A stretch of DNA of 64,000 nt. Source: Candidatus Micrarchaeota archaeon. Its GTDB lineage: Archaea > Micrarchaeota > Micrarchaeia > Norongarragalinales > SBBD01. Below, in pieces: positions 11,164 through 50,977 of this stretch; positions within the stretch are counted from its first letter, which is position 1, and each line of letters opens with the position of its first letter. Location: positions 5,367 to 69,366 of the forward strand of contig JBFYLP010000002.1 in assembly GCA_041305345.1 (NCBI GenBank), given 5' to 3'. The notes under the pieces are model-generated. The model saw only the letters and a list, made by a program, of their open reading frames with translations. It was not told where the DNA came from and ran no database searches. Made by a program: the position numbers and the translations under genes.

Positions 11164-11724
11164 CTAGAAGAAGTCCCTCACGACATCGTTGATGCTTTTC
11201 TTGATCCCCTCGTGCTTCTCCTCGTGCCATTTTATGAAGTCCTCGGCAAAAAGTATCGAGAATAGGACAATGGAATAAAAGAGCAAAGCGACCCCCTGCG
11301 AGGTGATGAAATCGTACCTTTCCATCGGGGTAGGCAGGTCGAGGTCCGCAAAAGAATAGCTCGCGTGCGAAAGGGGGTAAAACAGCTGCACCCGGTAATC
11401 CGCGGAATAGAACATGTCCGCAACAAGGTGCCCAACGAGCATTGCAATCACTACGAGGAAAAACTGCTGCATTTCGGTTGATTTGAACTTGTGGTTCCTT
11501 TCGGTTTTATATGCGGCATAAAAGAACAGCAATGGCACGCCGATCGTTACGAAAACGTTGTGGAAGGGCTTGGGGTTGAGCGCATCTATGTAAAGAAAAT
11601 GGTCGAAATCAATGAGCACGGCAAATGATGCAGCTGCAAGCACGAACCATAGCTTGTGCCTTTTGTGCAAGTCGAGAGCCAGCGCTGCGATTACCGAGAA
11701 AACGAAATGGAAAAGGGAGTCCAT
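11164..11724 (-). CDS. membrane-bound metal-dependent hydrolase, DUF457/YdjM-like
   Basis: N-terminal MDSLFHFVFSVIAALALDL...LIDFDHFLYID with conserved His/Asp. Four TM segments. Confidence 0.6.
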   Translation of the reverse strand: MDSLFHFVFSVIAALALDLHKRHKLWFVLAAASFAVLIDFDHFLYIDALNPKPFHNVFVTIGVPLLFFYAAYKTERNHKFKSTEMQQFFLVVIAMLVGHLVADMFYSADYRVQLFYPLSHASYSFADLDLPTPMERYDFITSQGVALLFYSIVLFSILFAEDFIKWHEEKHEGIKKSINDVVRDFF

Positions 11725-11829
11725 ATTACTAAGAATGGGGGGCCGTTTAAAACCATTTCCATCCCTCAGGCAAAATGAACATGAAAGTTAATCCGGCCGT
11801 TTAAAATCATTTCCATCCTATCTCTAATT

Positions 11830-12318
11830 ATGAAAACCGCATTGGTCATTGGCAGGTTCCAGCCCTTCCATAATGGGCATTTGGAAGCATTAAGGAAAAT
11901 CATTAGGGAAAATGGCGCGTTGCTATTGGTGATTGGGAGCGCCCAGGAAAGCAGGACCGAAAAGAATCCGTTTACCGTTGGGGAGCGGATCGAAATGATC
12001 TCAAATTGCCTTCGGAATGAGGGATTGCTTTCAATGACAAAATTGGTAACGCTAAATGATGAGAACGACCATTCACGATGGCTCAAACGCCTTCTTGAAA
12101 TCGCAAAAACCGCGGATGTTGCCTACTCCGGCAATTGGCTGGTGCAGCATTTGCTCAAAAACAGGTTAAAAGTGCAGAAGATGACCTCGAGCGTAAAAAT
12201 ATCCGCCACGGAGATAAGGAGGATGATCCGTTCCAAGGACCCGAAATGGAAACAATTCGTGCCTCCGGCAATAATTAGCTGCTTGGTCAAGGGACGTCTA
12301 TTGAGGCACGTAACCTGA
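11830..12318 (+). CDS. nadM: nicotinamide-nucleotide adenylyltransferase, archaeal type
   Basis: GRFQPFHNGH (HxGH) motif near the N-terminus. About 160 aa. Confidence 0.85.
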   Translation: MKTALVIGRFQPFHNGHLEALRKIIRENGALLLVIGSAQESRTEKNPFTVGERIEMISNCLRNEGLLSMTKLVTLNDENDHSRWLKRLLEIAKTADVAYSGNWLVQHLLKNRLKVQKMTSSVKISATEIRRMIRSKDPKWKQFVPPAIISCLVKGRLLRHVT

Positions 12319-29709: not shown

Positions 29710-30915
29710 CTACCATTTATCCCTGGCCGCATTCCGCCTAACTTTCTTTGTAAGCATCCTCCGAAACACAATAGGCGCTATCAGGGTTGATGCCAGGGCC
29801 ATGAAAATCAATGCTGTAAATATCTCATCGGTAATCAGCTTATTTTGCAATGCAAGCGAGGCAACTGCAAGCTCGACATCCCCTTTTGCGGTAACTCCCC
29901 AGCCTACAAGAAGCCCCTCCTGCAGCGTGCCCTTGTCGTATAGGATGGCAAGTGTGGTTCCAATCACGGTTCCGCCAATTGCAATGATGCTAAGCGCAAT
30001 GCCAAGGAGGGGGTTGGAAAAGAAGGATGGGACATCCACATTCAGCCCCACCCACACAAAGAAAAGGGGTACGAGGAATCCGAACGAAACCGCGTGTATC
30101 GTGCTTGAGATCTCGTGCACTTCCCAGGGCCTTCGGTGCTTTTCCTGCAGGAGCGAGTGCCTAACAATCACGCCCGCAATTAGTGCGCCCGCAAGCGCCC
30201 CAAGGCCAAGGAAGTCGGAAATTGATGCCATTGAAAGCGTCAGGATGAGCGCTACCATGAAAAGAACCGATGGCGAATGCTCTTTCTGGACGACATTTAG
30301 CGCGAAAGGCACTAGGAGGAAGCGCATTATTGCTGCCACTCCGATGAATGCAAGCATCCCAATGACCACTTCCTGGATGTTCCCGCTTCCAAGGGAGATC
30401 TGGAGGTAGGATATGATGAGAGAGATGAAAATCAGCTCAAGCAGATCATCAACCGAGCCGGTTACGACTATTAGGTTCCCGATTTTGGTTTTAAGCAGGT
30501 TGAATTCCTCGAGGAAATCAAGCGAGATGGCTGTTGAGCTAACAGCAAGGCAGATTCCAACGATTATGGCAACCGATGGGTCGTAGCCAAGCAAATAGAT
30601 CAATGCCGTTCCAAGAATGAATGGAATGGCGGTGTTGAGCGCGGAAATCAGGATGGTTTTCTTGAAATGCCTCTGGAACTCCTTCAAATTCACCTCGAAA
30701 CCCGTGAAAAAGAAGAGCAGCACGATGCCAATATCCGCAAGGCCGGACATCACCTCGCTATTCGAGGTCGTCAGGAGCGCATCCCTTGCAAAAAAGCCAA
30801 TTAGTATTCCCGCTGATATCTGCCCAACGACCCTTGGAATGTGGTAGCGCCTGCATAGCTCTGAAAGGAAATACGCGAAGGTTAGGGCCGTAAGCAGGAG
30901 GAACACGAAATTCAT
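29710..30915 (-). CDS. monovalent cation:proton antiporter (CPA2/Kef-NapA type)
   Basis: About 11 TM segments and an N-terminal LSELCRRYHIPRVVGQISAGILIG typical of Kef-type exchangers. Confidence 0.75.
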   Translation of the reverse strand: MNFVFLLLTALTFAYFLSELCRRYHIPRVVGQISAGILIGFFARDALLTTSNSEVMSGLADIGIVLLFFFTGFEVNLKEFQRHFKKTILISALNTAIPFILGTALIYLLGYDPSVAIIVGICLAVSSTAISLDFLEEFNLLKTKIGNLIVVTGSVDDLLELIFISLIISYLQISLGSGNIQEVVIGMLAFIGVAAIMRFLLVPFALNVVQKEHSPSVLFMVALILTLSMASISDFLGLGALAGALIAGVIVRHSLLQEKHRRPWEVHEISSTIHAVSFGFLVPLFFVWVGLNVDVPSFFSNPLLGIALSIIAIGGTVIGTTLAILYDKGTLQEGLLVGWGVTAKGDVELAVASLALQNKLITDEIFTALIFMALASTLIAPIVFRRMLTKKVRRNAARDKW

Positions 30916-30999: not shown

Positions 31000-33900
31000 T
31001 CAGAGTCCTTTGCGCCTTATTTGCCTTCTCTTGCCAATGACCACGAGGGCAACCAAGGCAGCGATGAAAGCGAGCCCGTATTCCCAAGGAAGTACGCTTG
31101 CTGCAAACAGCCCGGTTGCGGGATTCACTTCGGGCAATGCCGTCGCCTGCGGTAAAGGAACCGTTTCCGAAGTGGTCAGCCTTGGCATTTGCACTGGTTT
31201 TTCTGGTTCAACAGGCACGTACTGCTTGGGTTTTACCGCCTCGACATTCTGGGCTTTTGTTGCCGGTGTTGATTTGGTTTCCTCGCTTGCTGGCGCTTCA
31301 GGCACGCTTTGGGGCATATAATATGAGGAGCCTCCCGAGCTTCCGGATGAACCGGATGTGGTTGCTGGCGAAATGGGCGTTGGCGCAGTTGCGGATATGG
31401 ACGAGCCTTCATTCCCAACCGTATCTACTGCGGTTACTGCCCAGTTGCCCGTTTGCCCTGCTGTATCGTATGCATTTGAGCTTGTCGAATCAACAAGCAC
31501 CCCATCCAGATATACATTATAGTGATCCACACCGTTTGCATCGGTTGCTGCCGGCCACGAAAGGATGCCGTTGCTTATTGTCACGGCGCCCATTTCCGGA
31601 GCCCGAAGATCGATCTTGATTTCTATCTGCGGGTCGGAGCAATGCGCAGGGATTTCCGCCCCATCGGGCAAATCTCCCTCAAACAAATTGTCGCATGCGC
31701 GCGCCCTCATATAGTATGTCTTCCCATCCTCCAAGCCCTCGGCCGTTGTATTGAAGTCCTCTCCGTAGAGGTCATCAACCTTGTATGGAAGCACGCGCCA
31801 GCCCGAATCATATTTCTCAGGCCCGATTGGCACTCCAAACAGGCTTCCAAGGTCCTCGAAGATGCGGTATTGCACCGTGTCCTCCCTAATGCCTGATGCG
31901 TCCTGCGCCATCATCTCTATTGGGATGATCTGGCCGTACGTTTCACCGCTTTGGGGCGATGTAATTTCCTTTTCTGGCGGTGAATTGTCGACCATCATCG
32001 TGGCGCTTACATTTGCCTTGTTGTATTCCATATCCATTGCAAACAATGCAAGCGTATGTGAGCCATCGTTCAGACCAATAGGCGCATTCCCGAATACCTT
32101 GCAGTTGCTGTCATCAATTATCTGGCCAGCAAAGCTGAAGGTCTGCTCAATGCACTCGTCATCGTTGCACGTCTCCTGCGTGATTTCGCCCGAGCATTGG
32201 AATAGCGCCGAATCATGGTCTTCTGCCTTCAAGTATGCGGCAAAGTAATCGCCGGTGCTTAAGGGCTCATCAAGGCCTTCAGTGTGGTCGAGTTCAATGA
32301 ATGGAGCCTGATTGTCGATGTCCATCAGTATGACATCGCCCATAGTATCCCGCGCCAGATCGTAGTAGGTGTTGCAGCTCCGGTCATTTATCTCAATGAC
32401 AAGATATGCCTTGTCTGTCAAGCCCGATTCCTCCGGAATCTGGACGCTTCCCTTGCATACTCCGTCATCAAATGGCACGCTCCCCAGTGAAACCAGATGG
32501 TATCTTTCCGGCCCCAGATATTCGAGCAAGTTATCGAATAGGTAAGGCTTCCTCATCAGGAGCATCACTGCCTGCAGCTCTGTTTCTGTAAGTTCCTCGA
32601 AATGCACATCCATCGCATAGAACATGCAGCTCGTAAATCCGCTTGCAGGGTCTCCCTTGTCCATTGCTGGCGCATATACGGAGAACTTCTCACCATCGTG
32701 GTACCATCTTCCGGATGTTGGATTCAATACCCAGCCTTTTGGCGGCTGTTTGTCGAAGATGTCAATTTCCGACTGCATCCCTTCCTCGTTAAACAACTGG
32801 TCCTGGCTGTAGTATTCGATCTCATACTCGCCTTCGATGCTGAATGCGAACTCCATTCCGGGCTCATATTCGATCCAATCCGACCATCCTCCGCCATTTA
32901 TTTGGTAGCGGTAATAGGTAATGGTTCCATCAACGTGGCAGATGGGCCCCCCATCTAGGGCTGAAAAGCCAATTAAGGTATCCCTGCATACGTAATAGTC
33001 GCACTCTTCTTCGGGCCCGCAGGCGGTCTTATTGCCCATAATGATCTTCTCGGTTTCGGGCGGAGTTGTATCGACGCGGTCTATTTCAGTTGTCAGGTTT
33101 GCCCTGTTCCCAAGTGCATCCTCGCAATAGTATTCTATTGTATGCACGGAATCCTCCTTGAAGTTTATGGTTGCACTGGTGCCCTCAACAACGACCCACT
33201 CCTCCCATTGCCCTCCATCGACATTGTACCGGTACAAAATGCTTACCCGGTCAACGGGATGCGGGTATGGGTCCGTGCATTCCAACGTGATGTCCGTATT
33301 CTGCGTGATGAAGTAATGGCAATCATCCCTCCCAAGATCTTCGCACGATATTGACGGCTTTCCAACCACCTTGCTGATTACCGGAGGCTGCGTTTCCACT
33401 ATGTCAATTTCCATTTGGGTTCTTTCCTGGTTGCCAAGCGCATCTACTGAGTAATAATACAGCGTATGCCTCGAATCCTCCGGGAATGTGAATGGCCCAG
33501 TGTACTCCGTCTCGTTTGTGCACCAATAGTCGGTCACCAATTCGATTTGTTCATCCCCTGGCTCCTCGCCTACGCAGTACCAGTAATAGGTTCTTACGCG
33601 GTCAACCGGATGCGGTTCCGGATCAATGGCTGCAAGAGTGATTGTTGTTTGCTGGGTGATGTAGTAGTCGCATTGTTCATCTTGATCGCATTCCACCTTT
33701 GGATCGCCAACTGTCTTGGTCGTTACGGGCGGAACTGTCTCGATATAGTCGATTTCAGAATAGGTCGGTCCCTTGTTTCCAAGTGCATCCTCCGCATAAT
33801 ATTCAATAGTGTGCTTGGAGTCCTCAGCGAAGTAAAGGTCATTCTCAAAAAGCGCCCAGTTAGACCAATCGCCGTCATTCACGTTGTAGCGGTAATATAT

Positions 33901-36900
33901 TTTTACTGCATCAACCGGATGCGGGAGCGGATCTGTTGCCTCGAAGGAGATTGGCGTACTTTGCGTTATGTACCAGTCGCACCCCTCTCCTATTCCGCAC
34001 GCAACCTTCGGGTCGCCTACTGTTTTCGCAACGGTCGGCCCCTGATTGTCCACAATATCCAGTTCGGTTTGCGTTAGCGCGGTATTTCCAAGAATGTCCT
34101 TGCAATAATATTCGATCTCGTGCATCGAATCTTCCGGTAGGGTGAAAGTCACTTCGTCATCCTCAGTGACGACAAAATCCCCCCATTCTCCCCATTCGCT
34201 GTTCTCATCGAGCCTATATCTGATCCGATAGCTAATCGAAACGTGATTCGACGGATGCGGATTTGGATCAGTGCAATAGAGCGTTATTGGCGTTTGGGAT
34301 GTGACGTAGAAATCGCAGCCGTTCTTGTCCACGCAAGGCACTTTCGGTTCGCCCACCACTTTCCTTACGACTGGAGGCACGGTTTCGACGATATCGATTT
34401 CCGTGTGCTCTTCCTCCTCATTCCCGAGTGCATCAACGCAGTAATATTTCAGCGTGTGCATCGAATCTTCGGGGAAGGTGAATGGCCCTTCATAAAGCAT
34501 CAAGTCCGTCCATTCGCCATCGTCAACAAGGTATTTGTATAAAAGCTGTTCCCCTCCAACAGGATGCGGATCTTGATCAATGCAGCTCATTGTAATCGGT
34601 GTTTGCTGCGTTATGTACCAGTCGCATTCCTCTCCTGTTTCGCATTCGTGCTTTGGATCCCCGACCGTCTTTTGGGTTTCTGGGGGCTGGGAGTCGACGA
34701 CATCGATCTCAGTCATTATGTCCCCTTCATTTCCTAGCGCATCCGTGCAATAGTATTCGAGCGTGTGCATTGAATCTTCAGGGTAGGAGAACGGACCCTC
34801 GTATTCTGTCCATTCATCCGGGAAATCGCCATCATTTATTTTATAGCGGAAGAAGATTTGCTCTCCTGCAACAGGGTGCGGATAAGCATCCTCACATTCA
34901 AGGGTTATCTGGGTATCGGTGGTCATGTAATAATCGCATCCGAGCGAATCGTCCGGTTCGCATTTCACTTGCGGCTTTCCGACCATTTTCTCCACTAATG
35001 GTGGCTGAGAATCCACAAAGTCCGCCTCGAGCATATGCCTTCCCATATTCCCCACATAATCGACAGCGAAGTAGGTTAGCGTGTGGTATGAGTCCTCCTC
35101 ATAACTGAATGGCCCGGAGTACTCGATCCATCCGGTGCATGTTTCAGGATCGACCAGGTAATCCGGCCTTGAGCAAATCTTGTAGAATATTTTTATTGGC
35201 TTGTTTGCCGCGTGGCCGAAATCAGTTGCAGTGAGGGTGAATTCCGTATCCTGCGTTACGTAATAATCGCATTCGTAGATGCCTTCATCAAGCGGTTGGC
35301 ATTCGACTTTGGGATCGCCCACGGTTTTCTCAACAATTGGCGGCTGCGAATCGACCTTTTCAACTTCGGAATGGGTCTGTTCAACATTGCCAAGAGCATC
35401 CACGCAATACCATTCAAGCTCGTGCCGCGAATCTTCCTCGTATGTAAAAGTGCCCGAATAAGTAATCCAATCGGTGAACTCCTCATCATCCAGTTTGTAT
35501 CGGTATTTGATTGTTATCGCATCAGACGGGTGTGGTTCCTGGTCGTTGCAGGTTAGGGTGATTGGGGTTTGCTGCGTAATGAAGTAATCGCAGCCATCAC
35601 CAGCCTCACAAGGCGCCTTGGGCTCTCCAAGCGTCTTTTCACTCACAGGGGCTGCCGTATCCACGATGTCAATCTCAAACCAATGCCTCTCCTCGTTGTT
35701 GCAGAAATCGATGCTGTAATACTCGATTTCGTGTATGCTGTCTTCGGAGAATGAGAATGGCTGTGTGTAAAGAATCCATCCACTCCAGCTGCCCCATCCA
35801 TCTTCGAAATCTTCCTTCCAGCGGTGCCTATAGTACACTTTTTGCTGGTCCGAGAAGTAGCCATCGCCCGGATCTGGATCCACTGACGTAAACGATATTT
35901 CCGTATCCTGCGTCACATAATAGCAATTTGCCGCTTCCTGCTCCTCCCCAAGGTAATCACAAGCGATTCTGGGTTCTCCTATTGTTTTCGTTGTTTGCGG
36001 CGGAGTCCGATCGATCACAAAGCACACTTCCTGCTGGAAGCTCATTTTCCCCCAATTGCCCGCAAGGTCCTTTCCGTGTAGCTTTACGCAATGCCTCCCT
36101 TCTTCGTGGAGGCTTGAATTGAAAGTGGCGTTCACCCATTCGCAAAGCTCATCCCAGCCGCCGTCCATCGGCCCCATCTGGTATCCCTGGCCGTTTGGCC
36201 ACGAGTTCCAAGTGCCGTCAAGGAAATATTCCGCCTGCACAACCGGCGATTGCGAATCGCAAATCTCTGCTGTTAGCTGCGGATTGCCCGCACATACCCA
36301 ATATGGAATGGTGATATTCCTTACGACTTCCGGGGGAATCTGGTCAACCTCGAACGTATCATAATTGCATTCTCCCCATTCACCGTTCTCATTCTGTGCC
36401 CTTACGTAGACCGTGTGCCTTCCGTCACCAATGCCAAAATTCTGCAAAATCACATTCCTTGCTGCAATTATCTCCCAGAATTTGTCATTATTGAATTGGC
36501 CATCGTCAGTAGGATAGATGCCAGTTCCCGTGCCTGGCTCGTCGCAATAATCGAAATAGAATTCTGCATAATGGATAGGCGAACAATCCTCTGAGACATT
36601 CGCGTGGATGTTCAGCCTGAAATTAGCCGGGTCGGGTATCGCATTAACTGAAACCACTACCGGTCCAAGAGTGTCAATCGGGCCATCGGAAGGATCGCAG
36701 GTATCGTACATCACTCCGTCCCTGCAATAAATATTGGAATATTCCTCTCCGCAGCCATTCGGTGTGCACGCCTGTTCCCCATAATAGCAAAGTCCCTGGT
36801 AAATCGTGCCCGGAATAGGGCAATAAGCATCCATTTCATATTCGCACGAGCAAGAGTCGGTGTTGCAGCCTCCACCATAATAGCAGATATCCCCAACGAT

Positions 36901-37533
36901 CTTCTCGCCGCAGGCTTCCTGGTTTTCAGTTGAGCATTCGTCCGGTGGAACCGTGCATTGTGGGGTTGGGGATGGTGAAGGGATTATGCAGTTCGCATCA
37001 ACTTCGCATTCCCATTGCCCTTCGCCTTCAATTTGAATGCACTGCTGATCCCTGCAAACCATATGATATGGCGTAGGTGTAGGCGAAGAAATGACGCAAT
37101 CATCATTCGTTTCACAGGTTGACGGTTCATTCCCGGTTCCTTGAAGCTGGGCACACGTCAAATCAACACAAGTCCAGTAATAATACGGTTCCGGAGTCGG
37201 TGAGGTAATGATGCAATCCTCCGATGTACTGCAAGTTGACGGTTCATTCCCGGTTCCTTGAAGCTGGGCGCACGTAAGATCGACGCAGGCCATATAATAG
37301 TAGGGATCCGGAGATGCAGACGGGCTTGGGGAAATGCAAGGAGATGGGGTGCATTGGGTGGTCACCATCTGGGGGCCTTCATCGCCAGTTTCACCTAGGT
37401 TTTCACCACCGGTTTCGGCGGAGCTCACGCTAACTAGGAGCCCTGCAAGAAGGAGCAACAGGTATATGTGGTAAGATGCAAACACATTCTGCAATGCGCC
37501 CGAAAGACCCTTCCCGACATTCCTATTGCCCAT
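31000..37533 (-). CDS. giant (2177 aa) surface protein with signal peptide, triplicated Cys-rich module, about 12 tandem Ig-like repeats, a Ser/Thr/Pro stalk and a C-terminal TM anchor
   Basis: N-terminal hydrophobic signal (IYLLLLLAGLLVSVSS). Three repeats contain CVDLTCAQLQGTGNEPSTC. Repeats of 105-115 aa follow the pattern VDxxPPxxxKxVGxPKxxC...CDYYxTxxTxITLxCxDxxPHPV...YRY..DG.W..W..YxGPFxFxEDSxHTxEYYxVDALGN. C-terminal STP-rich region, TM helix LAFIAALVALVVIG and KRRQIRRKGL tail. Confidence 0.75.
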   Translation of the reverse strand: MGNRNVGKGLSGALQNVFASYHIYLLLLLAGLLVSVSSAETGGENLGETGDEGPQMVTTQCTPSPCISPSPSASPDPYYYMACVDLTCAQLQGTGNEPSTCSTSEDCIITSPTPEPYYYWTCVDLTCAQLQGTGNEPSTCETNDDCVISSPTPTPYHMVCRDQQCIQIEGEGQWECEVDANCIIPSPSPTPQCTVPPDECSTENQEACGEKIVGDICYYGGGCNTDSCSCEYEMDAYCPIPGTIYQGLCYYGEQACTPNGCGEEYSNIYCRDGVMYDTCDPSDGPIDTLGPVVVSVNAIPDPANFRLNIHANVSEDCSPIHYAEFYFDYCDEPGTGTGIYPTDDGQFNNDKFWEIIAARNVILQNFGIGDGRHTVYVRAQNENGEWGECNYDTFEVDQIPPEVVRNITIPYWVCAGNPQLTAEICDSQSPVVQAEYFLDGTWNSWPNGQGYQMGPMDGGWDELCEWVNATFNSSLHEEGRHCVKLHGKDLAGNWGKMSFQQEVCFVIDRTPPQTTKTIGEPRIACDYLGEEQEAANCYYVTQDTEISFTSVDPDPGDGYFSDQQKVYYRHRWKEDFEDGWGSWSGWILYTQPFSFSEDSIHEIEYYSIDFCNNEERHWFEIDIVDTAAPVSEKTLGEPKAPCEAGDGCDYFITQQTPITLTCNDQEPHPSDAITIKYRYKLDDEEFTDWITYSGTFTYEEDSRHELEWYCVDALGNVEQTHSEVEKVDSQPPIVEKTVGDPKVECQPLDEGIYECDYYVTQDTEFTLTATDFGHAANKPIKIFYKICSRPDYLVDPETCTGWIEYSGPFSYEEDSYHTLTYFAVDYVGNMGRHMLEADFVDSQPPLVEKMVGKPQVKCEPDDSLGCDYYMTTDTQITLECEDAYPHPVAGEQIFFRYKINDGDFPDEWTEYEGPFSYPEDSMHTLEYYCTDALGNEGDIMTEIDVVDSQPPETQKTVGDPKHECETGEECDWYITQQTPITMSCIDQDPHPVGGEQLLYKYLVDDGEWTDLMLYEGPFTFPEDSMHTLKYYCVDALGNEEEEHTEIDIVETVPPVVRKVVGEPKVPCVDKNGCDFYVTSQTPITLYCTDPNPHPSNHVSISYRIRYRLDENSEWGEWGDFVVTEDDEVTFTLPEDSMHEIEYYCKDILGNTALTQTELDIVDNQGPTVAKTVGDPKVACGIGEGCDWYITQSTPISFEATDPLPHPVDAVKIYYRYNVNDGDWSNWALFENDLYFAEDSKHTIEYYAEDALGNKGPTYSEIDYIETVPPVTTKTVGDPKVECDQDEQCDYYITQQTTITLAAIDPEPHPVDRVRTYYWYCVGEEPGDEQIELVTDYWCTNETEYTGPFTFPEDSRHTLYYYSVDALGNQERTQMEIDIVETQPPVISKVVGKPSISCEDLGRDDCHYFITQNTDITLECTDPYPHPVDRVSILYRYNVDGGQWEEWVVVEGTSATINFKEDSVHTIEYYCEDALGNRANLTTEIDRVDTTPPETEKIIMGNKTACGPEEECDYYVCRDTLIGFSALDGGPICHVDGTITYYRYQINGGGWSDWIEYEPGMEFAFSIEGEYEIEYYSQDQLFNEEGMQSEIDIFDKQPPKGWVLNPTSGRWYHDGEKFSVYAPAMDKGDPASGFTSCMFYAMDVHFEELTETELQAVMLLMRKPYLFDNLLEYLGPERYHLVSLGSVPFDDGVCKGSVQIPEESGLTDKAYLVIEINDRSCNTYYDLARDTMGDVILMDIDNQAPFIELDHTEGLDEPLSTGDYFAAYLKAEDHDSALFQCSGEITQETCNDDECIEQTFSFAGQIIDDSNCKVFGNAPIGLNDGSHTLALFAMDMEYNKANVSATMMVDNSPPEKEITSPQSGETYGQIIPIEMMAQDASGIREDTVQYRIFEDLGSLFGVPIGPEKYDSGWRVLPYKVDDLYGEDFNTTAEGLEDGKTYYMRARACDNLFEGDLPDGAEIPAHCSDPQIEIKIDLRAPEMGAVTISNGILSWPAATDANGVDHYNVYLDGVLVDSTSSNAYDTAGQTGNWAVTAVDTVGNEGSSISATAPTPISPATTSGSSGSSGGSSYYMPQSVPEAPASEETKSTPATKAQNVEAVKPKQYVPVEPEKPVQMPRLTTSETVPLPQATALPEVNPATGLFAASVLPWEYGLAFIAALVALVVIGKRRQIRRKGL
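33000..36100 (-). repeat. coding tandem-repeat array of about 12 Ig-like (CHB_HEX_C/OmpL47-like) modules of 105-115 aa inside the giant gene
   Basis: Periodic recurrence of PP..EK.VG.PK...C, CDYY.TQ.T.ITL, PHPV, YRY..DG.W, GPF.F.EDS.HT.EYY and D.LGN in the translation. Confidence 0.7.
37118..37290 (-). repeat. near-identical 50-nt direct repeat (period 117 nt) encoding the duplicated CVDLTCAQLQGTGNEPSTC module
   Basis: gttgacggttcattcccggttccttgaagctgggc occurs at 37118 and again at 37235, with about 4 mismatches over the next 15 nt. Confidence 0.8.
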
Positions 37534-43277: not shown

Positions 43278-44522
43278 ATGGCTACAGAGCACGTACTAAT
43301 AGGGTTAATTGGCCTTACGATTTTCGTTGGCTACCTTTCCTCCGTTTTTTTCGACAAGACAAAGATCCCTGACGTGCTTTTGCTGATCCTGATGGGGATG
43401 ATTCTTGGGCCCGTCACCAACATCATCAACGGCACGCTGCTAATTGAGCTTGCCCCATTGATTGGGACCATTGCCCTTATCATCATAGTATTCGATGGGA
43501 GCACGAAGCTGAACTTCTTCGAGGTGCTAGACGAGCTTCCGGAAAGCATGTGGTTCACATTGCTTGTCTGCATCCTAACCGCCGCCTCGGTTGCCATCGC
43601 CTACCTTCTGACCTGGGCAGATGCCACTTTGATCCAGGGGCTGCTCCTTGGAATTGTGGTTGCAGGCACGAGTTATGAGATAATCGTGCCCCTGGTTGCC
43701 AAACTCACCGTAAAGGACAAAGTGAAGACGCTGCTCAATCTCGAATCCGCCCTTAATGACGTCATAACGATAGTTGCGCTGGTCGTACTGCTCAGTTACA
43801 TTTCGCCCTCCATCCAAACAAAGGTCAATCCCATCCAATTCTTCATCAGCACGTTTTCAATAGCGATATTCCTTGGCATAATTTCCGGGATTTTCTGGGT
43901 CAAGGTGCTCCAGAACTACAAGGGCAAGCCCTTTGAATACCTGCTCACCCTTGCGTTCGTTTTCCTCCTGTTTTCCGTTACGCAGGCATTCGATGGAAAT
44001 GGGATTACCGCAGTTTTGGTTTTCGGGCTTCTGCTTGGCAATTCGGATGCGATAGCAAGGCTCCTTAAGATAAAGGAGGAGCTTGGGCTTGACCCTGCCA
44101 TCACAAGATTCAACGCAGAAATAAGCTTTTTCGTTAGGACAATGTTTTTCGTGTATATGGGTATTGTGTTCATCGTTGACCAAAACGACCTGCTTCCCCT
44201 GTTGATCGGCGCATTCGTGGTTTTCCTTGCAGTCCTCATTGCAAGGATCGTGGCGGTCAAGGTACTGGTTAGGATGAATCCTTCAATTGGCGATTCGGAA
44301 ATCATCATAATGGCCATGCTTCCGCGCGGTTTGGCAACTGCCGTGCTTGCATCGCTTCCCCTTACGTATAAGGTCGATTTCCCCGCCATTGTCCAGATAG
44401 TGCTCGTTTTTATGCTAATCACGAACATCTTTGCTACAATCGCAGCTTACTATTTTGAAACCCAGGTAGCGCACCCTTCAAAAACCCAGGTGCCTGCCCC
44501 AGCCAAGGAGAAGAAGGAATAG
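43278..44522 (+). CDS. Na+/H+ antiporter, CPA1 (NhaP-type)
   Basis: About 12 TM segments. IIVFDGS and ESALNDVITIV motifs are typical of NhaP exchangers. Confidence 0.8.
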   Translation: MATEHVLIGLIGLTIFVGYLSSVFFDKTKIPDVLLLILMGMILGPVTNIINGTLLIELAPLIGTIALIIIVFDGSTKLNFFEVLDELPESMWFTLLVCILTAASVAIAYLLTWADATLIQGLLLGIVVAGTSYEIIVPLVAKLTVKDKVKTLLNLESALNDVITIVALVVLLSYISPSIQTKVNPIQFFISTFSIAIFLGIISGIFWVKVLQNYKGKPFEYLLTLAFVFLLFSVTQAFDGNGITAVLVFGLLLGNSDAIARLLKIKEELGLDPAITRFNAEISFFVRTMFFVYMGIVFIVDQNDLLPLLIGAFVVFLAVLIARIVAVKVLVRMNPSIGDSEIIIMAMLPRGLATAVLASLPLTYKVDFPAIVQIVLVFMLITNIFATIAAYYFETQVAHPSKTQVPAPAKEKKE

Positions 44523-45969: not shown

Positions 45970-47211
45970 ATGAAACTCCAAGTTCTAATCGGCATCGCAT
46001 TCGTTCTACTGGCAGGATGTGTCCAGATCGATTCGAATAAGGCGACTCCGACGCCGCAAGTGATATACGTGAATGCATCGCCACAAGTCATAGTGACCGT
46101 TGTCCCTTCGGCAGTACCCGTCGTGACCGAAAAAATCGTTTACCCCTCCGCTTCCAAAATCCCCTATGAGGAAAGGAAAGGCGGGCTGACCGACCTTGGC
46201 CTTCGGGAGGAATACGTTCCTTTTGACATCTCCAACGCCGCAAATGCCGATTACCACCACAATCCTTACCTGATCCTAAACACGATAGGGAAGAATTATT
46301 TCCCGGATTTGCAGGAGGGCAACCTCTATTGGGGTAAGGTGCCTTTCCACATCCTTGGCGATTACGACACTGCTAGGAAATGGAGCGTGCTAACTACTGC
46401 AAGCGAGGATTTCTATTCCGCTTCATTCCTGACCTCAAGAACGCGTATCACGGAAATTTATTTCCTCGTTTCGGGCTCCTTCAGGAAAGGAGACCGCCGC
46501 ATCCTTGGCGAGATCAAGCTCAACTACGGGGATGGCGACATACAGACAATCAACGTGGTATCGAACGAGAACGTATGGAATTACGAACCCGACGCGGAAT
46601 TCCCAATCCCTTTAGAGAAAATCGCCTGGCAGTACAACGGAACGAATGGAACGCAGACGCTAACGCTCATTGGGGAGAAACTAACGCGGCCCCTAACCCC
46701 AATAAGCGCCGTAACCATAAAGCGCACAGCTACCGGGGAGAATGGTTTCACGCTGTTTGCAGCAACCGGCGTCCAGAAGTTTAGGACCAAGCGGCTTTTA
46801 TTCACCCAAACCGAATTCCAAGAGGAAGGGTATAACCGGGTTTTTTCAACAACGCTGACAGCCGGCGCAATGATCAACTACGATGATTCGGGCGGTGTAC
46901 GAGTCTACCGCCCAGAGGGCGTGTTCGAATCGCCAGTCATAGACGGCGAGACCGAGCTTGTCAATTGGAAGAGGATTTCTTGGGACGCCGACCAATACCC
47001 TGGAACAACGGTCAAATTCCAATATAGGACGGGAAATACGGTCCAGATTGATGGCAGGTGGACCGAGTGGGAGGACGTACAGAACAATGCGGATATTCCA
47101 AAGGATGGGATGTTCCTCCAATGGAGGGCGCTGATGACGACCTCAGACAGCGCAAGGTCCCCGCTCCTGAAGGAACTAGTGCTCGAGTACGAGAACCCGC
47201 TCACAAGCTGA
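45970..47211 (+). CDS. secreted protein or lipoprotein (lipobox LAGC), beta-rich
   Basis: Signal MKLQVLIGIAFVLLAGC, a PT-rich linker, then a Tyr/Trp/Asn-rich domain. Confidence 0.5.
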   Translation: MKLQVLIGIAFVLLAGCVQIDSNKATPTPQVIYVNASPQVIVTVVPSAVPVVTEKIVYPSASKIPYEERKGGLTDLGLREEYVPFDISNAANADYHHNPYLILNTIGKNYFPDLQEGNLYWGKVPFHILGDYDTARKWSVLTTASEDFYSASFLTSRTRITEIYFLVSGSFRKGDRRILGEIKLNYGDGDIQTINVVSNENVWNYEPDAEFPIPLEKIAWQYNGTNGTQTLTLIGEKLTRPLTPISAVTIKRTATGENGFTLFAATGVQKFRTKRLLFTQTEFQEEGYNRVFSTTLTAGAMINYDDSGGVRVYRPEGVFESPVIDGETELVNWKRISWDADQYPGTTVKFQYRTGNTVQIDGRWTEWEDVQNNADIPKDGMFLQWRALMTTSDSARSPLLKELVLEYENPLTS

Positions 47212-47292
47212 CCCTGAGGTTTAGGTAAACCTAACATTTAAATACTTCCAGGCATCTAAATAATTCAACATTTAATTTAAGGGTGAAATGAA

Positions 47293-47961
47293 ATGAAATC
47301 CACGATGGTTGCAATAATTGGAAGCGATTCCGACTCTTCGGACATCCTATATCGCGGGTTGCGTGAATTTTCTTCAGACAAGGTGGTCCTGCTATCAGAA
47401 GCTTCCAATTTGGATGCTGTTGGCAAGATCAGGAAGGACCTGGAAAAATTGAAGGTCCCGGTCGTATCCGAAACCATTGAAAAGCGTACCTCGATGGAGG
47501 AGGTTTTTTCCAGATTGGCAAGGATTCGGGATAGGGAAGTTGGAAATAAGTTAATTGTCAATGTGGATACGGATTACCTCTCCTCGTGCATCGCGCTTTC
47601 CGCTGCTTTTGTGAACGGCGTGCAGGCAATAGGCGTTAATGATGAGAAGGTCATCGCATACCCCATAATGAAATTCTCCTATTATAGCGCGCTCTCGGAC
47701 AAGAAGATGATGCTCTTGCGTACGATTTCGAAACAGGGGCAGTTTGATTCGCTCGAAGCGCTCTCGCAGGAGGTTGGGATGAGCCTTCCGCTGATAACCT
47801 ACCACGTCAGGGGGGCAAGGGAAAAGCCCGGATTGGAGGAACTTGGCCTTATCGAAACCCGGCGGAATCGGGGGAAGATCATAACCACCCTCTCCCCTCT
47901 TGGCAAACTTATAGTGAATGGGATGGTGGAGGTCAAGCAAACCGACAAGAAGAAGAGATGA
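47293..47961 (+). CDS. Csa3-like transcriptional regulator (N-terminal CARF-like Rossmann domain plus C-terminal winged HTH)
   Basis: N-terminus MVAIIGSDSDSSDILYRGL...DKVVLLSE...LIVNVDTDYLSSCIALSAAFVNG. C-terminus MMLLRTISKQGQFDSLEALSQEVGMSLPLITYHVR...LEELGLIETRRNRGKI. Recalled layout and spacing match Sulfolobus Csa3. Confidence 0.5.
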   Translation: MKSTMVAIIGSDSDSSDILYRGLREFSSDKVVLLSEASNLDAVGKIRKDLEKLKVPVVSETIEKRTSMEEVFSRLARIRDREVGNKLIVNVDTDYLSSCIALSAAFVNGVQAIGVNDEKVIAYPIMKFSYYSALSDKKMMLLRTISKQGQFDSLEALSQEVGMSLPLITYHVRGAREKPGLEELGLIETRRNRGKIITTLSPLGKLIVNGMVEVKQTDKKKR

Positions 47962-47983
47962 TGAACCCTGTGATGAAGAACTC

Positions 47984-48790
47984 TCATGCATGAATTTGCC
48001 GTTTTTGAATGTTCCGATAATCCTCATTTAACCTTGGCTGGAATTTGTTCAAGACAGCAAGCAGCCTTTCCCTTTCGATCATTGGATACCTAGGGCTTTC
48101 GATCGCTTTCCGAAACACATCGAGCCTCCTGGAATACTTGCCCAGTGCTTTGAGCTGCTGCTTGATTGGGAGGTTTTTCAGCGTATCCCTGTTGTCTTCG
48201 ATGTCAAAAAGCTTGACAAAAAGGGTTCCTGCGGGCGCGGATAGGATGCGCCTTATGTAGGCCATCTCTTTCATAGCAGTTGATTCTTCATCCTTGCTGC
48301 CTGCCTCTTTGTGATAATCTGGATCCTCGGGCAGAACGATCTTTTTATTTACTACTTTGGGTTCCGATAGGAGGGCGACCTGCCGGGCCAATTCCGTGTC
48401 GGACAATACTTTCTCCAAATATTCGTGTGTCACGCGTTTCCTGCCCGACCTTTCAGGATATGCCCCTTCCTCGATAAGGTCGTGCAGGTAAGCCAGTTTT
48501 ATTTCCCCAAGGTTGCCACCATTCATGGCTGTAAGCATTGCCACCCTGTCGGGATGCCTCGCGTAAAGGGTCCGGTTGTCGCGCATTTGATTCCCGTGCA
48601 GATCGTAGCAATGCTTCCTATGCTCCAGTAGGATATGCACTTCCGCAATGGTTATTCCGTGGTTTTTCGAGAGGTGGAAGAGTGTTTTTTCCAAAAAGCG
48701 CGATTTGGGGAATTTGTTTATGCCAATGAACTGGCGTACCTCCATGATTTTATTGAATCTATATTTTTCAACGTTTTCCCCTCGATTCAT
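47984..48790 (-). CDS. HD-domain phosphohydrolase, RelA/SpoT-type (p)ppGpp-hydrolase-like (small alarmone hydrolase/Mesh1-like)
   Basis: HPDRVAMLTAMNGGNLGEIKLAYLHDLIEEG matches HP..VA.IL....D...I.AALLHDVIED. LFVKLFDIEDNRDTLKNL matches LIKLADRLHNMRTL. Confidence 0.55.
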   Translation of the reverse strand: MNRGENVEKYRFNKIMEVRQFIGINKFPKSRFLEKTLFHLSKNHGITIAEVHILLEHRKHCYDLHGNQMRDNRTLYARHPDRVAMLTAMNGGNLGEIKLAYLHDLIEEGAYPERSGRKRVTHEYLEKVLSDTELARQVALLSEPKVVNKKIVLPEDPDYHKEAGSKDEESTAMKEMAYIRRILSAPAGTLFVKLFDIEDNRDTLKNLPIKQQLKALGKYSRRLDVFRKAIESPRYPMIERERLLAVLNKFQPRLNEDYRNIQKRQIHA

Positions 48791-50209: not shown

Positions 50210-50977
50210 ATGCCACTCGTCTCAAAAATCGTCGCGGCAATCACGGCACTCGGCCACAGGAGGCCGGGCACCAGCAGGGAAACCTACATACTCGATCGGA
50301 GGAAGGGTTCCGTGGAGCTCCGGATGGACCCGCACCTGCTCATCAAATTGGAGATGTTCAAGCGCTTTACCGTGAAGAAAACCTGGGGATTTGAGCTTAC
50401 CCTTAGGAACCACGCCGAAAAGACCATTGACGAGCTCCTGATAGTATTCAATAAGAAATACTCGATCATCGTTGACAAGATAGGGCCGGATTCGATGAAG
50501 ATAAAGTCGCTCGAATTCAAGCCCGAAGAATTCGATTCGGACGAATTTTCCGTTGACCTAAGCGTTGTGATTTCCGAAGGCCGGAAGGCGCATTCAGAGG
50601 CGTATTCGGTTACGATTCCGATGAGGAGCATCATAACTGAGCTGAAGGATGCTGGAAGGATCACGCCAATACAGGAGGAAATCGAGACCTACAGGCCCGG
50701 AAGCATCGACAAGTCGGTGATGGAAAATTTCGTTGCGGAATCGATGAAGCAGGCAACCATCAGGCCGCGCGTGCCCGTCGAAAGCCCGGGAAAGCCGATA
50801 GTCAACAAGGAATCGCTCCAGCACAAGCTTGCGGAGCTGACTTCCCAGAAGACCGAAATTGAGAAGAGCTTCATGAAGCGGCAGATTGACTACAACACTT
50901 TCTCCCAATTGATGAACCCAATAGTGCAGGAGATGATTCTGATCCAGGCTCAGCTTGGGAAAATGGAAGATTCCTAA
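50210..50977 (+). CDS. hypothetical protein with C-terminal coiled coil
   Basis: 255-aa ORF with no motif. Confidence 0.4.
   Translation: MPLVSKIVAAITALGHRRPGTSRETYILDRRKGSVELRMDPHLLIKLEMFKRFTVKKTWGFELTLRNHAEKTIDELLIVFNKKYSIIVDKIGPDSMKIKSLEFKPEEFDSDEFSVDLSVVISEGRKAHSEAYSVTIPMRSIITELKDAGRITPIQEEIETYRPGSIDKSVMENFVAESMKQATIRPRVPVESPGKPIVNKESLQHKLAELTSQKTEIEKSFMKRQIDYNTFSQLMNPIVQEMILIQAQLGKMEDS

Follow-up and report, generated by a model that had tools for sequence, protein, structure and literature searches.

Two convergent genes, ORF A and ORF B, lie tail to tail in a 64,000-nt stretch of DNA from Candidatus Micrarchaeota archaeon (contig JBFYLP010000002.1, positions 5,367 to 69,366; hereafter the window). 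ORF A is a CARF and winged-helix protein of the DUF6293/HFX_2341 (PF19810) family, and ORF B is a stand-alone RelA/SpoT-type HD domain, which represents a new and highly divergent member of the RelA/SpoT homologue (RSH) family. An earlier note, made from the letters of the window, had proposed that both proteins form a small signalling module. We favour, with a probability of roughly 60%, the reading that the Micrarchaeota (DPANN) chromosome carries them as separate functional genes, which are neighbours by lineage-specific gene order and not a demonstrated signalling module. The note had placed both ORFs exactly (coordinates, strands, lengths and convergent gap), and the motifs quoted from ORF A (MVAIIGSDSD and LIVNVDTD) and from ORF B (LAYLHDLIEEG and LFDIEDNRDTL) were present. 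Both ORFs are also called as genes on a 297,668-bp contig of an NCBI assembly, and their closest relatives were found in metagenome-assembled genomes (MAGs) of Candidatus Micrarchaeota/Norongarragalinales. The scans of the window covered these 64 kb only, and the scans of loci covered the contigs fetched from relatives. The central features are as follows.

47293..47961, + strand: ORF A, 222 aa, ATG start; CARF and winged-helix transcription factor of the DUF6293/HFX_2341 family
47293..47670, + strand: CARF-type domain of ORF A, residues 1-126; six-stranded and Rossmann-like, with a beta5-beta6 hairpin
47680..47928, + strand: winged helix-turn-helix DNA-binding domain of ORF A, residues 130-212
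47962..47983, no strand: spacer between the convergent stop codons of ORF A and ORF B, 22 nt
47984..48790, - strand: ORF B, 268 aa, ATG start; stand-alone RSH-type HD hydrolase domain, small-alarmone-hydrolase-like
48098..48649, - strand: HD_4 core of ORF B, residues about 48-231; H65, R70, H79, H103-D104, E107-E108, K193, D196 and N200

ORF A is a Csa3-like protein of a family that is not linked to CRISPR

ORF A was modelled with AlphaFold2 (AF2) from an alignment of 48 family sequences (alignment A1: 36 of the DPANN subfamily, ORF A included, and 12 of a sister subfamily), and a mean predicted local distance difference test (pLDDT) value of 88 was obtained. In the model, strands are located at residues 3-9, 30-35, 57-61, 86-90, 111-116 and 119-123, the last two forming the beta5-beta6 hairpin, and the winged helix-turn-helix (wHTH) domain consists of helices 136-148, 154-161 and 165-173, followed by a beta wing (187-192 and 195-200). 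When this model was compared with the Protein Data Bank (PDB) by Foldseek, the Csa3 structures came on top (6wxq, 2wte and 6w11; E-values from 1.7e-9 to 4e-8 over 227-234 columns, i.e., at full length), and after them, down to rank 27, only CARF proteins were found (VC1899, Can2, Cam1, Card1, Csm6, Can1, Cdn1 and Cad1). The Foldseek probability was 1.00 for Csa3 and for the CARF domains of Can2, Cam1, Card1 and Csm6, and CARF-only superpositions gave root-mean-square deviations of 2.6-2.8 A (about 118 columns in the case of Cam1). The whole-chain TM-scores were low (about 0.43-0.46), and a different relative orientation of the two domains would be the likeliest cause. Evidence independent of the model was provided by seven PADLOC CARF3--CARF models, which matched ORF A with E-values from 1.6e-12 (full length) to 5e-3; the family profile also reached the CARF domain of Can2 (8bao, E=2.9e-5) and Csm6' (0.026). 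The wHTH region was matched weakly by Pfam HVO_A0114 and by the PADLOC Csa3 model, which covered this part alone (E=0.018). The Csa3 layout that the earlier note had read in ORF A was borne out by these comparisons, in which Csa3/Csa3a (Sso1445; 2WTE, 6W11 and 6WXQ), with the same order of the two domains, was the best full-length structural match, and the N-terminal domain matched CARF by both structure and profile. ORF A differs from Csa3 in its sequence (18-19% identity) and in that no cas genes or arrays are present in its 64 kb.

ORF A scored 22.6 bits (E=1.5e-4) against PF19810 (HFX_2341_N, formerly DUF6293), below the Pfam gathering threshold of 30 bits. Among its 89 homologues the named ones belong to DPANN archaea; many homologues match PF19810, among them the orthologues 69-78% identical to ORF A, which NCBI names 'DUF6293 family protein'. 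Some homologues have HTH_5/HTH_24 matches and are named MarR/ArsR regulators by JGI. With the motif ALS[AS]AFVNG and tblastn, taking one genome per species, 68 loci were recovered, and they span Micrarchaeota, Woese-, Nano- and Aenigmatarchaeota, Nitrososphaerota, Thermoplasmatota and Halobacteriales. Residues C99, S103, G109, Y130, K138, Y170 and H171 are invariant in alignment A1. One homologue (44% identity) was located on L036 (CAXPJQ010000048.1), from a MAG labelled as a Bdellovibrionales bacterium; this label is most likely a binning error, all other homologues being archaeal.

HFX_2341 of Haloferax mediterranei, reported in 2024, is a chromosomal protein that is Csa3a-like by HHpred and is encoded about 178 kb from the nearest array; it shows strong vertical inheritance, is present in CRISPR-less species and acts as a global repressor, which on over-expression also lowers cas transcripts (PMC11434293). 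ORF A has the same N-terminal domain family followed by a C-terminal winged helix, and it is likewise chromosomal with no CRISPR-cas adjoining, and of a type that archaea conserve widely and by vertical descent. It differs from HFX_2341 in being shorter (222 versus 308 aa), in remaining under the gathering threshold, and in belonging to a subfamily with a three-residue insertion after strand 1, a one-residue deletion after strand 4 and loss of a basic residue (see below).

The absence of CRISPR-Cas from the window, as claimed before, was confirmed as far as the tools used can detect it. No CRISPR array was found in the 64 kb with Tandem Repeats Finder, and the short-spaced direct repeats of the window were just two unrelated two-copy repeats, nothing CRISPR-like. 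The PADLOC models detected no Cas, Cas10, CD-NTase or other cyclase among the 52 window proteins, the matches being the CARF models on ORF A and housekeeping look-alikes, e.g., TatD/QatD. However, ORF A is not the unexpected orphan that the note had made of it. The PF19810 family is widespread and had already been reported as Csa3-like yet CRISPR-unlinked (PMC11434293), and because it is found across archaeal phyla, a Csa3-like protein without CRISPR is the rule, and not an anomaly, for PF19810.

The CARF pocket of ORF A is conserved but remodelled

Two positions mark the CARF superfamily: strand 1 closes with a polar residue (S/T), and strand 4 is directly followed by a basic residue that is highly conserved and in many cases forms part of a [DN]x[ST]xxx[RK] signature (PMC4012209). 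The cyclic tetra-adenylate (cA4)-binding motifs of Csa3 are T-h-G-F-[ND]-E-x4-R and L-x2-G-h-R (PMC8699464). In ORF A the loop after strand 4 reads N90-V-D-T-D-Y-L, and the basic residue of the signature is missing. The 36 DPANN-subfamily sequences of A1 are all of the NVDT-DY type, with a one-residue deletion, no Gly and mostly a Tyr for the basic residue, and this subfamily has the three-residue insertion after strand 1; the 12 sister-subfamily sequences mostly read NV[SAG][ST]G[DS][RK], so that the signature is mostly kept. At the end of strand 1, ORF A has S11 in a variable column (E, D, P, G or S), flanked by the conserved G10, D12 and D14. As judged from the sequence and the predicted secondary structure, and not from a residue-level superposition on Csa3, only G10 and D12 match the first cA4 motif, as evident counterparts of its G and D, and the G-h-R of the second motif is absent after strand 4. 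A string LYRGLR is found at residues 19-24, but it sits in helix 1, outside the pocket loop.

The pocket-forming loops nevertheless rank among the most conserved parts of ORF A (in A1, G10 was found in 47/48 sequences, D12 in 44/48, D14 in 42/48, N90 in 47/48, D94 in 43/48 and C99 in 48/48), which suggests that a ligand site has been retained in the CARF domain. Cyclic oligoadenylate is unlikely to be this ligand, because the pocket is Asp-rich and acidic, the ligand is polyanionic and the basic residue has been lost. With this residue and the Csa3 cA4 motifs missing in the subfamily, the role of cyclic-oligoadenylate sensor that had been ascribed to ORF A is doubtful. In an alternative reading, the N-terminal domain would no longer sense any ligand and would only hold together the dimer of a winged-helix regulator that is constitutive, as the disappearance of both the basic residue of [DN]x[ST]xxx[RK] and the post-strand-4 Gly throughout the DPANN subfamily might indicate, together with the lack of a candidate signal-making enzyme among the 52 window proteins scanned with PADLOC. 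The strong conservation of the CARF pocket loops, however, is not readily explained by dimerisation alone, so that we consider a ligand-free scaffold very unlikely.

A conserved palindrome lies just upstream of the putative ORF A promoter

Upstream of ORF A two further elements were located.

47221..47234, no strand: palindrome TTAGGTAAACCTAA (TTAGG-N4-CCTAA), candidate operator, 72 nt before the ORF A ATG
47237..47244, + strand: TATA-like box TTTAAATA, 2 nt downstream of the palindrome; read from the sequence, with a putative promoter role

TTAGG-N4-CCTAA has a single exact match in the window (expected 0.04). Its arms are invariant in 8/8 loci in which the upstream region is intact and the identity of the ORF A orthologue is 69% or more; the flanks diverge, and the centres vary (TAAA, AGAA, GCCG and GCAA). 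The position is nearly fixed, from -70 to -85 with respect to the orthologous ORF A start. The orthologous loci have TTTATATA or TATTTATA as TATA-like box, at an equal distance from the ATG, and the spacing between palindrome and box is either 2 nt or 13 nt, values that are about one helical turn apart. In the 720 kb of fetched loci, 8 of the 9 occurrences of TTAGG-N4-CCTAA were at the ORF A upstream position, and the palindrome was absent from the promoters of ORF B in the window and of the HD genes in the relatives. Because the arms are invariant and the centre is free, the site of a dimeric winged-helix protein fits the palindrome better than an RNA hairpin does. A comparable arrangement is known for Csa3a, in which the CAPPa element is located 12 bp upstream of the TFB-recognition element (BRE)/TATA (PMC8699464), and the candidate palindrome of ORF A likewise lies just upstream of its BRE/TATA. 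This arrangement suggests autoregulation of ORF A, with ORF A itself as the presumed binder.

The palindrome was also considered as a terminator of the upstream 413-aa gene, and this was rejected as its main role, since the distance to the stop codon varies (10 to about 42 nt). The near-fixed distance to ORF A, the arms that are invariant and not covarying, and the weak 5-bp stem further weaken it.

ORF B is a stand-alone RelA/SpoT-type HD domain

In single-sequence scans ORF B gave no Pfam hit, and NCBIfam and PADLOC were empty or far below threshold; against TIGR00691 (spoT_relA) it reached E=2e-4 and 19.8 bits, versus a 499-bit cut-off, and a phmmer search of the PDB returned the Rel protein of S. 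aureus (7oiw) with E=1.8e-3. In a word-indexed search of 5.8 billion proteins ORF B retrieved itself alone, and an exhaustive HMMER search of 1.84 billion representative proteins yielded 16 relatives at E<=1e-3, several of them with Pfam HD_4. We then used a profile built from ORF B and six syntenic orthologues (A6), which replaced a broader profile (A4) whose true Rel fragments made the PDB matches circular. Four of the seven A6 sequences match HD_4 (PF13328), two of them above the 27.2-bit cut-off, and the A6 profile matched Rel/SpoT catalytic fragments of the PDB with E-values from 1e-19 to 1e-13, small alarmone hydrolases (SAHs) from 1e-11 to 1e-10, MESH1 at 1e-7 and a (p)ppApp hydrolase at 1e-5. 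The membership of ORF B in HD_4/RSH is set transitively, because its orthologues match HD_4 and the joint profile reaches Rel at 1e-19. The AF2 model (pLDDT 92.7, predicted TM-score 0.90) is a well-packed canonical RSH HD fold, and its top 42 Foldseek matches in the PDB were all RSH HD domains (Rel, SpoT, Mesh1, SAH and (p)ppApp hydrolase). The identification of the HD protein as a RelA/SpoT-type hydrolase domain was in this way corroborated. RSH-type HD domains are 3'-pyrophosphohydrolases, and no ring nuclease was present among the top structural matches of ORF B.

The best structural and profile matches of ORF B were to the hydrolase domain of long Rel/SpoT proteins (6S2U, 7OIW, 7QPR and 1VJ7), from which it differs in having no synthetase, TGS or ACT domains; a hidden Markov model (HMM) of long RSH proteins covered only positions 26-154, i.e., the HD region. 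When the same HMM was run on the six-frame translation of the 64 kb, this region was again the sole match, and no alarmone synthetase was detected. With the SAHs and Mesh1 (PF13328; 3NR1, 5VXA, 6YVC, 7QOC and 7SMG) ORF B shares the architecture of a single HD domain without synthetase, the same fold, the H...HD...D metal site, the Glu of the Glu-Asp (ED) pair and the Asn after the last Asp. It differs from them in being about 90 residues longer, in an ED pair that reads EE, in that no curated model is above threshold, and in its host, an archaeon, from a group that rarely carries RSH proteins (PMC3153485). In the AF2 model, ORF B shows a helical extension at its N-terminus, a long helix at its C-terminus, and two inserted beta hairpins, at residues 110-119 and 145-152. 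Larger HD_4 proteins of 388-480 aa, one of them annotated as Micrarchaeota, also have the second of these insertions (PKxxGKxW/I...P..P.Y).

The conserved columns of ORF B are H65, R70, Y76, H79, H103-D104, E107, K193, D196 and N200. The metal site (H65, H103-D104 and D196) and the catalytic Glu are intact, so that the His/Asp metal ligands, whose presence on alignment the earlier note had made the test of the HD assignment, were found, but the catalytic ED pair departs from the canonical form, being EE (E107-E108) in ORF B and EQ, EK, ER or EH in the orthologues. In addition, one orthologue has ND for HD and another one has E for the last metal-binding Asp. The E65A and D66K mutants of human MESH1 are severely compromised (bioRxiv 10.1101/325266), and since the K variant equals the MESH1 D66K change, some ORF B orthologues carry a substitution that is inactivating elsewhere; the D-to-E change of ORF B itself is conservative.

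Regarding the origin of ORF B, a tblastn search against 50,697 phage records gave no match that would point to a viral or mobile source, and the structural matches in the BFVD database were ordinary phage SAH-like proteins. RSH proteins are sporadic in archaea and have been ascribed to transfer from bacteria (PMC3153485), (p)ppGpp was undetected in two model archaea (PMC8646023), and a DPANN survey lists several phyla with RelA/SpoT homologues, Micrarchaeota not being one of them (PMC8407392).

ORF B is the fastest-evolving gene of its block

The window gene was compared with its counterparts in the clade relatives for ORF A, ORF B and six of their neighbours, and the following ranges of identity were obtained.

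Aminotransferase: 78-88%
ORF A: 69-78%
Ferredoxin: 67-80%
Lon-C protein: 69-73%
M17 peptidase: 66-74%
255-aa protein: 54-63%
413-aa protein: 46-60%
ORF B: 22-39%, partial lengths

No gene of the block evolves faster than ORF B, which has 22-41% identity versus 46-88% for nine neighbours; over 191 residues, the closest orthologue found is 41% identical. Possible causes of this rate are relaxed constraint, a switch of substrate, or diversification driven by conflict. A second HD_4 (SpoT-like) paralogue, divergently transcribed, adjoins the ORF B orthologue in some relatives (L002/L003:7662-8738 (+), L014:4854-5996 (+) and L011:4151-5137 (+)); in this paralogue a further insertion precedes the HP motif, and a D replaces the N that follows the last metal Asp. 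In the window no second HD_4 copy is present between ORF B and the aminotransferase gene.

No Pfam domain was matched by either of the two conserved hypothetical proteins of the block, of 413 aa (45970-47211, +) and 255 aa (50210-50977, +). Their genes keep synteny with ORF A in every close relative and, with 46-63% identity, they are the fastest-evolving after ORF B.

Given its divergence, ORF B might alternatively be an RSH HD domain that has been repurposed or is impaired in catalysis, i.e., a pseudo-enzyme or a nucleotide-binding protein under relaxed or shifting constraint. Its rate with respect to the nine neighbours, the small number of detectable relatives (16 only, among 1.8 billion representative proteins) and its score below every Pfam threshold are in line with this, and so are the second ED residue (E in ORF B; Q, K, R or H in the orthologues, K being the MESH1 D66K change) and the orthologues with ND for HD and with E for the last metal Asp. 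However, ORF B has all four metal ligands together with E107, R70, K193 and N200, and its D-to-E change is a mild one. Conservation of the active-site positions reaches 90% or more within the family, which argues for purifying selection on this site, and the model shows a well-packed canonical fold. On balance we regard a loss of catalysis as unlikely, and we treat ORF B as a functional gene.

The pairing of ORF A and ORF B follows the synteny of one clade

We searched all ORFs of 78 fetched loci with the HD profiles (hmmsearch). An adjacent convergent HD homologue was found in 8/8 loci with an ORF A at least 69% identical (L001, L002/L003, L008, L011, L012, L013, L014 and L018), and the tail-to-tail junction varied across the clade from the 22-nt gap of the window to an overlap of 83 nt, the widest gap in the relatives being 2 nt. 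The remote relatives of ORF B proved to be encoded beside ORF A orthologues, in convergent orientation (P0092 at L002:6672-7577(-) and P0093 at L001:6593-7168(-)). In about 60 loci, of DPANN and other archaea, in which ORF A is at most 61% identical, no adjacent HD homologue was detected; the downstream neighbours there are DsbA/CTP synthase, cytochrome b5/CTP synthase, transketolase or SAM synthetase. The conservation of the pairing that the earlier note had put forward as a check holds in every relative with an ORF A at least 69% identical, but it does not extend to any of the more distant loci. Other HD_4 genes of Micrarchaeota were located elsewhere in the genome, in unrelated contexts.

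The paired clade shares a whole syntenic block, composed of the genes for an EF-Tu-D2 protein, a Na+/H+ exchanger, a Lon-C protein, a ferredoxin, the 413-aa protein, ORF A, the HD protein, an aminotransferase, the 255-aa protein and an M17 peptidase. Because the whole neighbourhood is syntenic in this clade, the adjacency adds no information beyond shared ancestry, and because the two genes are convergent, they are not co-transcribed.

Two observations were made on the neighbourhoods themselves. In two genomes of Micrarchaeota whose ORF A homologue falls in the 59-61% identity tier, a CTP synthase gene (L004:6666-8219 and L007:3950-5551) lies one gene downstream of this homologue, and no other neighbour of ORF A was seen to recur outside the close clade. 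The loci L001 and L018 both come from assembly JBDRLB01, and each of them has an ORF A-HD pair (78% and 75% identity to ORF A, respectively), which suggests either two related populations binned together or a duplication of the locus.

The earlier note had explained the adjacency by a nucleotide second-messenger module, with the CARF domain of ORF A as the sensor and the HD protein responsible for turnover of the signal, by a ring-nuclease-like activity or as alarmone control. A ligand-sensor fold does adjoin a nucleotide phosphohydrolase fold, the tail-to-tail adjacency is kept in 8/8 related loci despite the extreme divergence of ORF B, and the strongly conserved pocket residues (G10, D12, D14, N90, D94 and C99) suggest that some ligand is bound. 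However, the pairing is absent from all of the about 60 loci beyond the clade, and within the wholly syntenic clade the adjacency carries no extra information; the genes are convergent; no cyclase, Cas10 or alarmone synthetase was found within 64 kb; and the ORF A palindrome is not at the HD promoters. In addition, the CARF basic residue and the Csa3 cA4 motifs are missing, the acidic pocket is unfavourable for polyanionic nucleotides, and an RSH-type HD domain, with no ring nuclease among the top structural matches, is a 3'-pyrophosphohydrolase. The module finds no support beyond adjacency in one syntenic clade, and we judge it quite unlikely. A narrower version, a CRISPR-independent signalling pair confined to one clade, in which a rapidly diversifying SpoT-like hydrolase, with a variable catalytic pair and a second copy in some genomes, would tune or erase the signal of the remodelled, acid-pocket CARF-wHTH protein, possibly in a symbiont-host or virus conflict, is in our opinion highly improbable.

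Two points weigh against the reading of two separate genes that we favour. The pairing is perfectly retained, and always tail-to-tail, though ORF B has diverged down to 22-41% identity, and such a retained adjacency could result from selection for adjacency. Furthermore, the duplication of the HD gene at the same spot in some relatives suggests that the locus itself matters.

Other features of the window

The window covers a housekeeping region of a small archaeal chromosome, with genes for SecY, ribosomal protein L15, eIF2-gamma, Cbf5/TruB, an A-type ATPase, PheRS, the M17 peptidase and the aminotransferase. Its GC content is about 0.49 and uniform, and it gave zero matches to Rfam.

A 24-nt direct repeat, GGCCGTTTAAAA(C/T)CATTTCCATCC, is present in two copies 54 nt apart (11741-11764 and 11795-11818), in the intergenic region between the divergent genes 11164-11724 (-) and 11830-12318 (+). 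Each copy holds a TATA-like TTTAAAA, so that the pair may be a duplicated promoter or operator element. In an ORF of 2177 aa (31000-37533, -) the sole domain hit is a weak match to a bacterial Ig-like domain (Big_7), and a segment of 117 nt is tandemly duplicated within the ORF, at 37063-37296; it probably encodes a giant surface or adhesion protein, in line with an episymbiotic DPANN cell. Two Na+/H+ exchanger paralogues lie less than 14 kb apart (29710-30915, -, and 43278-44522, +).

Proposed roles and significance

For the DNA target and the ligand of ORF A, and for the substrate and catalysis of ORF B, we infer the following. From the analogy with HFX_2341 and Csa3, a dimer is the most likely active form of ORF A. 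This protein would be likely to bind TTAGG-N4-CCTAA, abutting its own BRE/TATA, and so to regulate its own expression and that of other genes. Its activity may be modulated through the conserved, remodelled Asp-rich CARF pocket, by a ligand that is probably not a cyclic oligoadenylate. ORF B would be a single-domain RSH HD phosphohydrolase of the Mn2+ type, which most likely removes the 3'-(pyro)phosphate from a nucleotide, be it (p)ppGpp, (p)ppApp or, as with MESH1, an NADPH-like substrate.

If two separate genes is the right reading, the value of these results is mainly one of annotation, and no long-standing question is answered by them alone. An unnamed DPANN protein is placed among the Csa3-like regulators of the HFX_2341/DUF6293 family, and this family is shown to occur across DPANN, Nitrososphaerota, Thermoplasmatota and haloarchaea without CRISPR linkage. 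TTAGG-N4-CCTAA is a newly noticed candidate operator that is directly testable. ORF B adds a very divergent SpoT/Mesh1-type enzyme to Micrarchaeota, a phylum outside the earlier list of DPANN groups with RelA/SpoT proteins (PMC8407392). Finally, a DPANN subfamily has been identified whose CARF pocket lacks the phosphate-binding basic residue, and the loss of this residue suggests that CARF-wHTH regulators outside CRISPR may read signals other than cyclic oligoadenylates.

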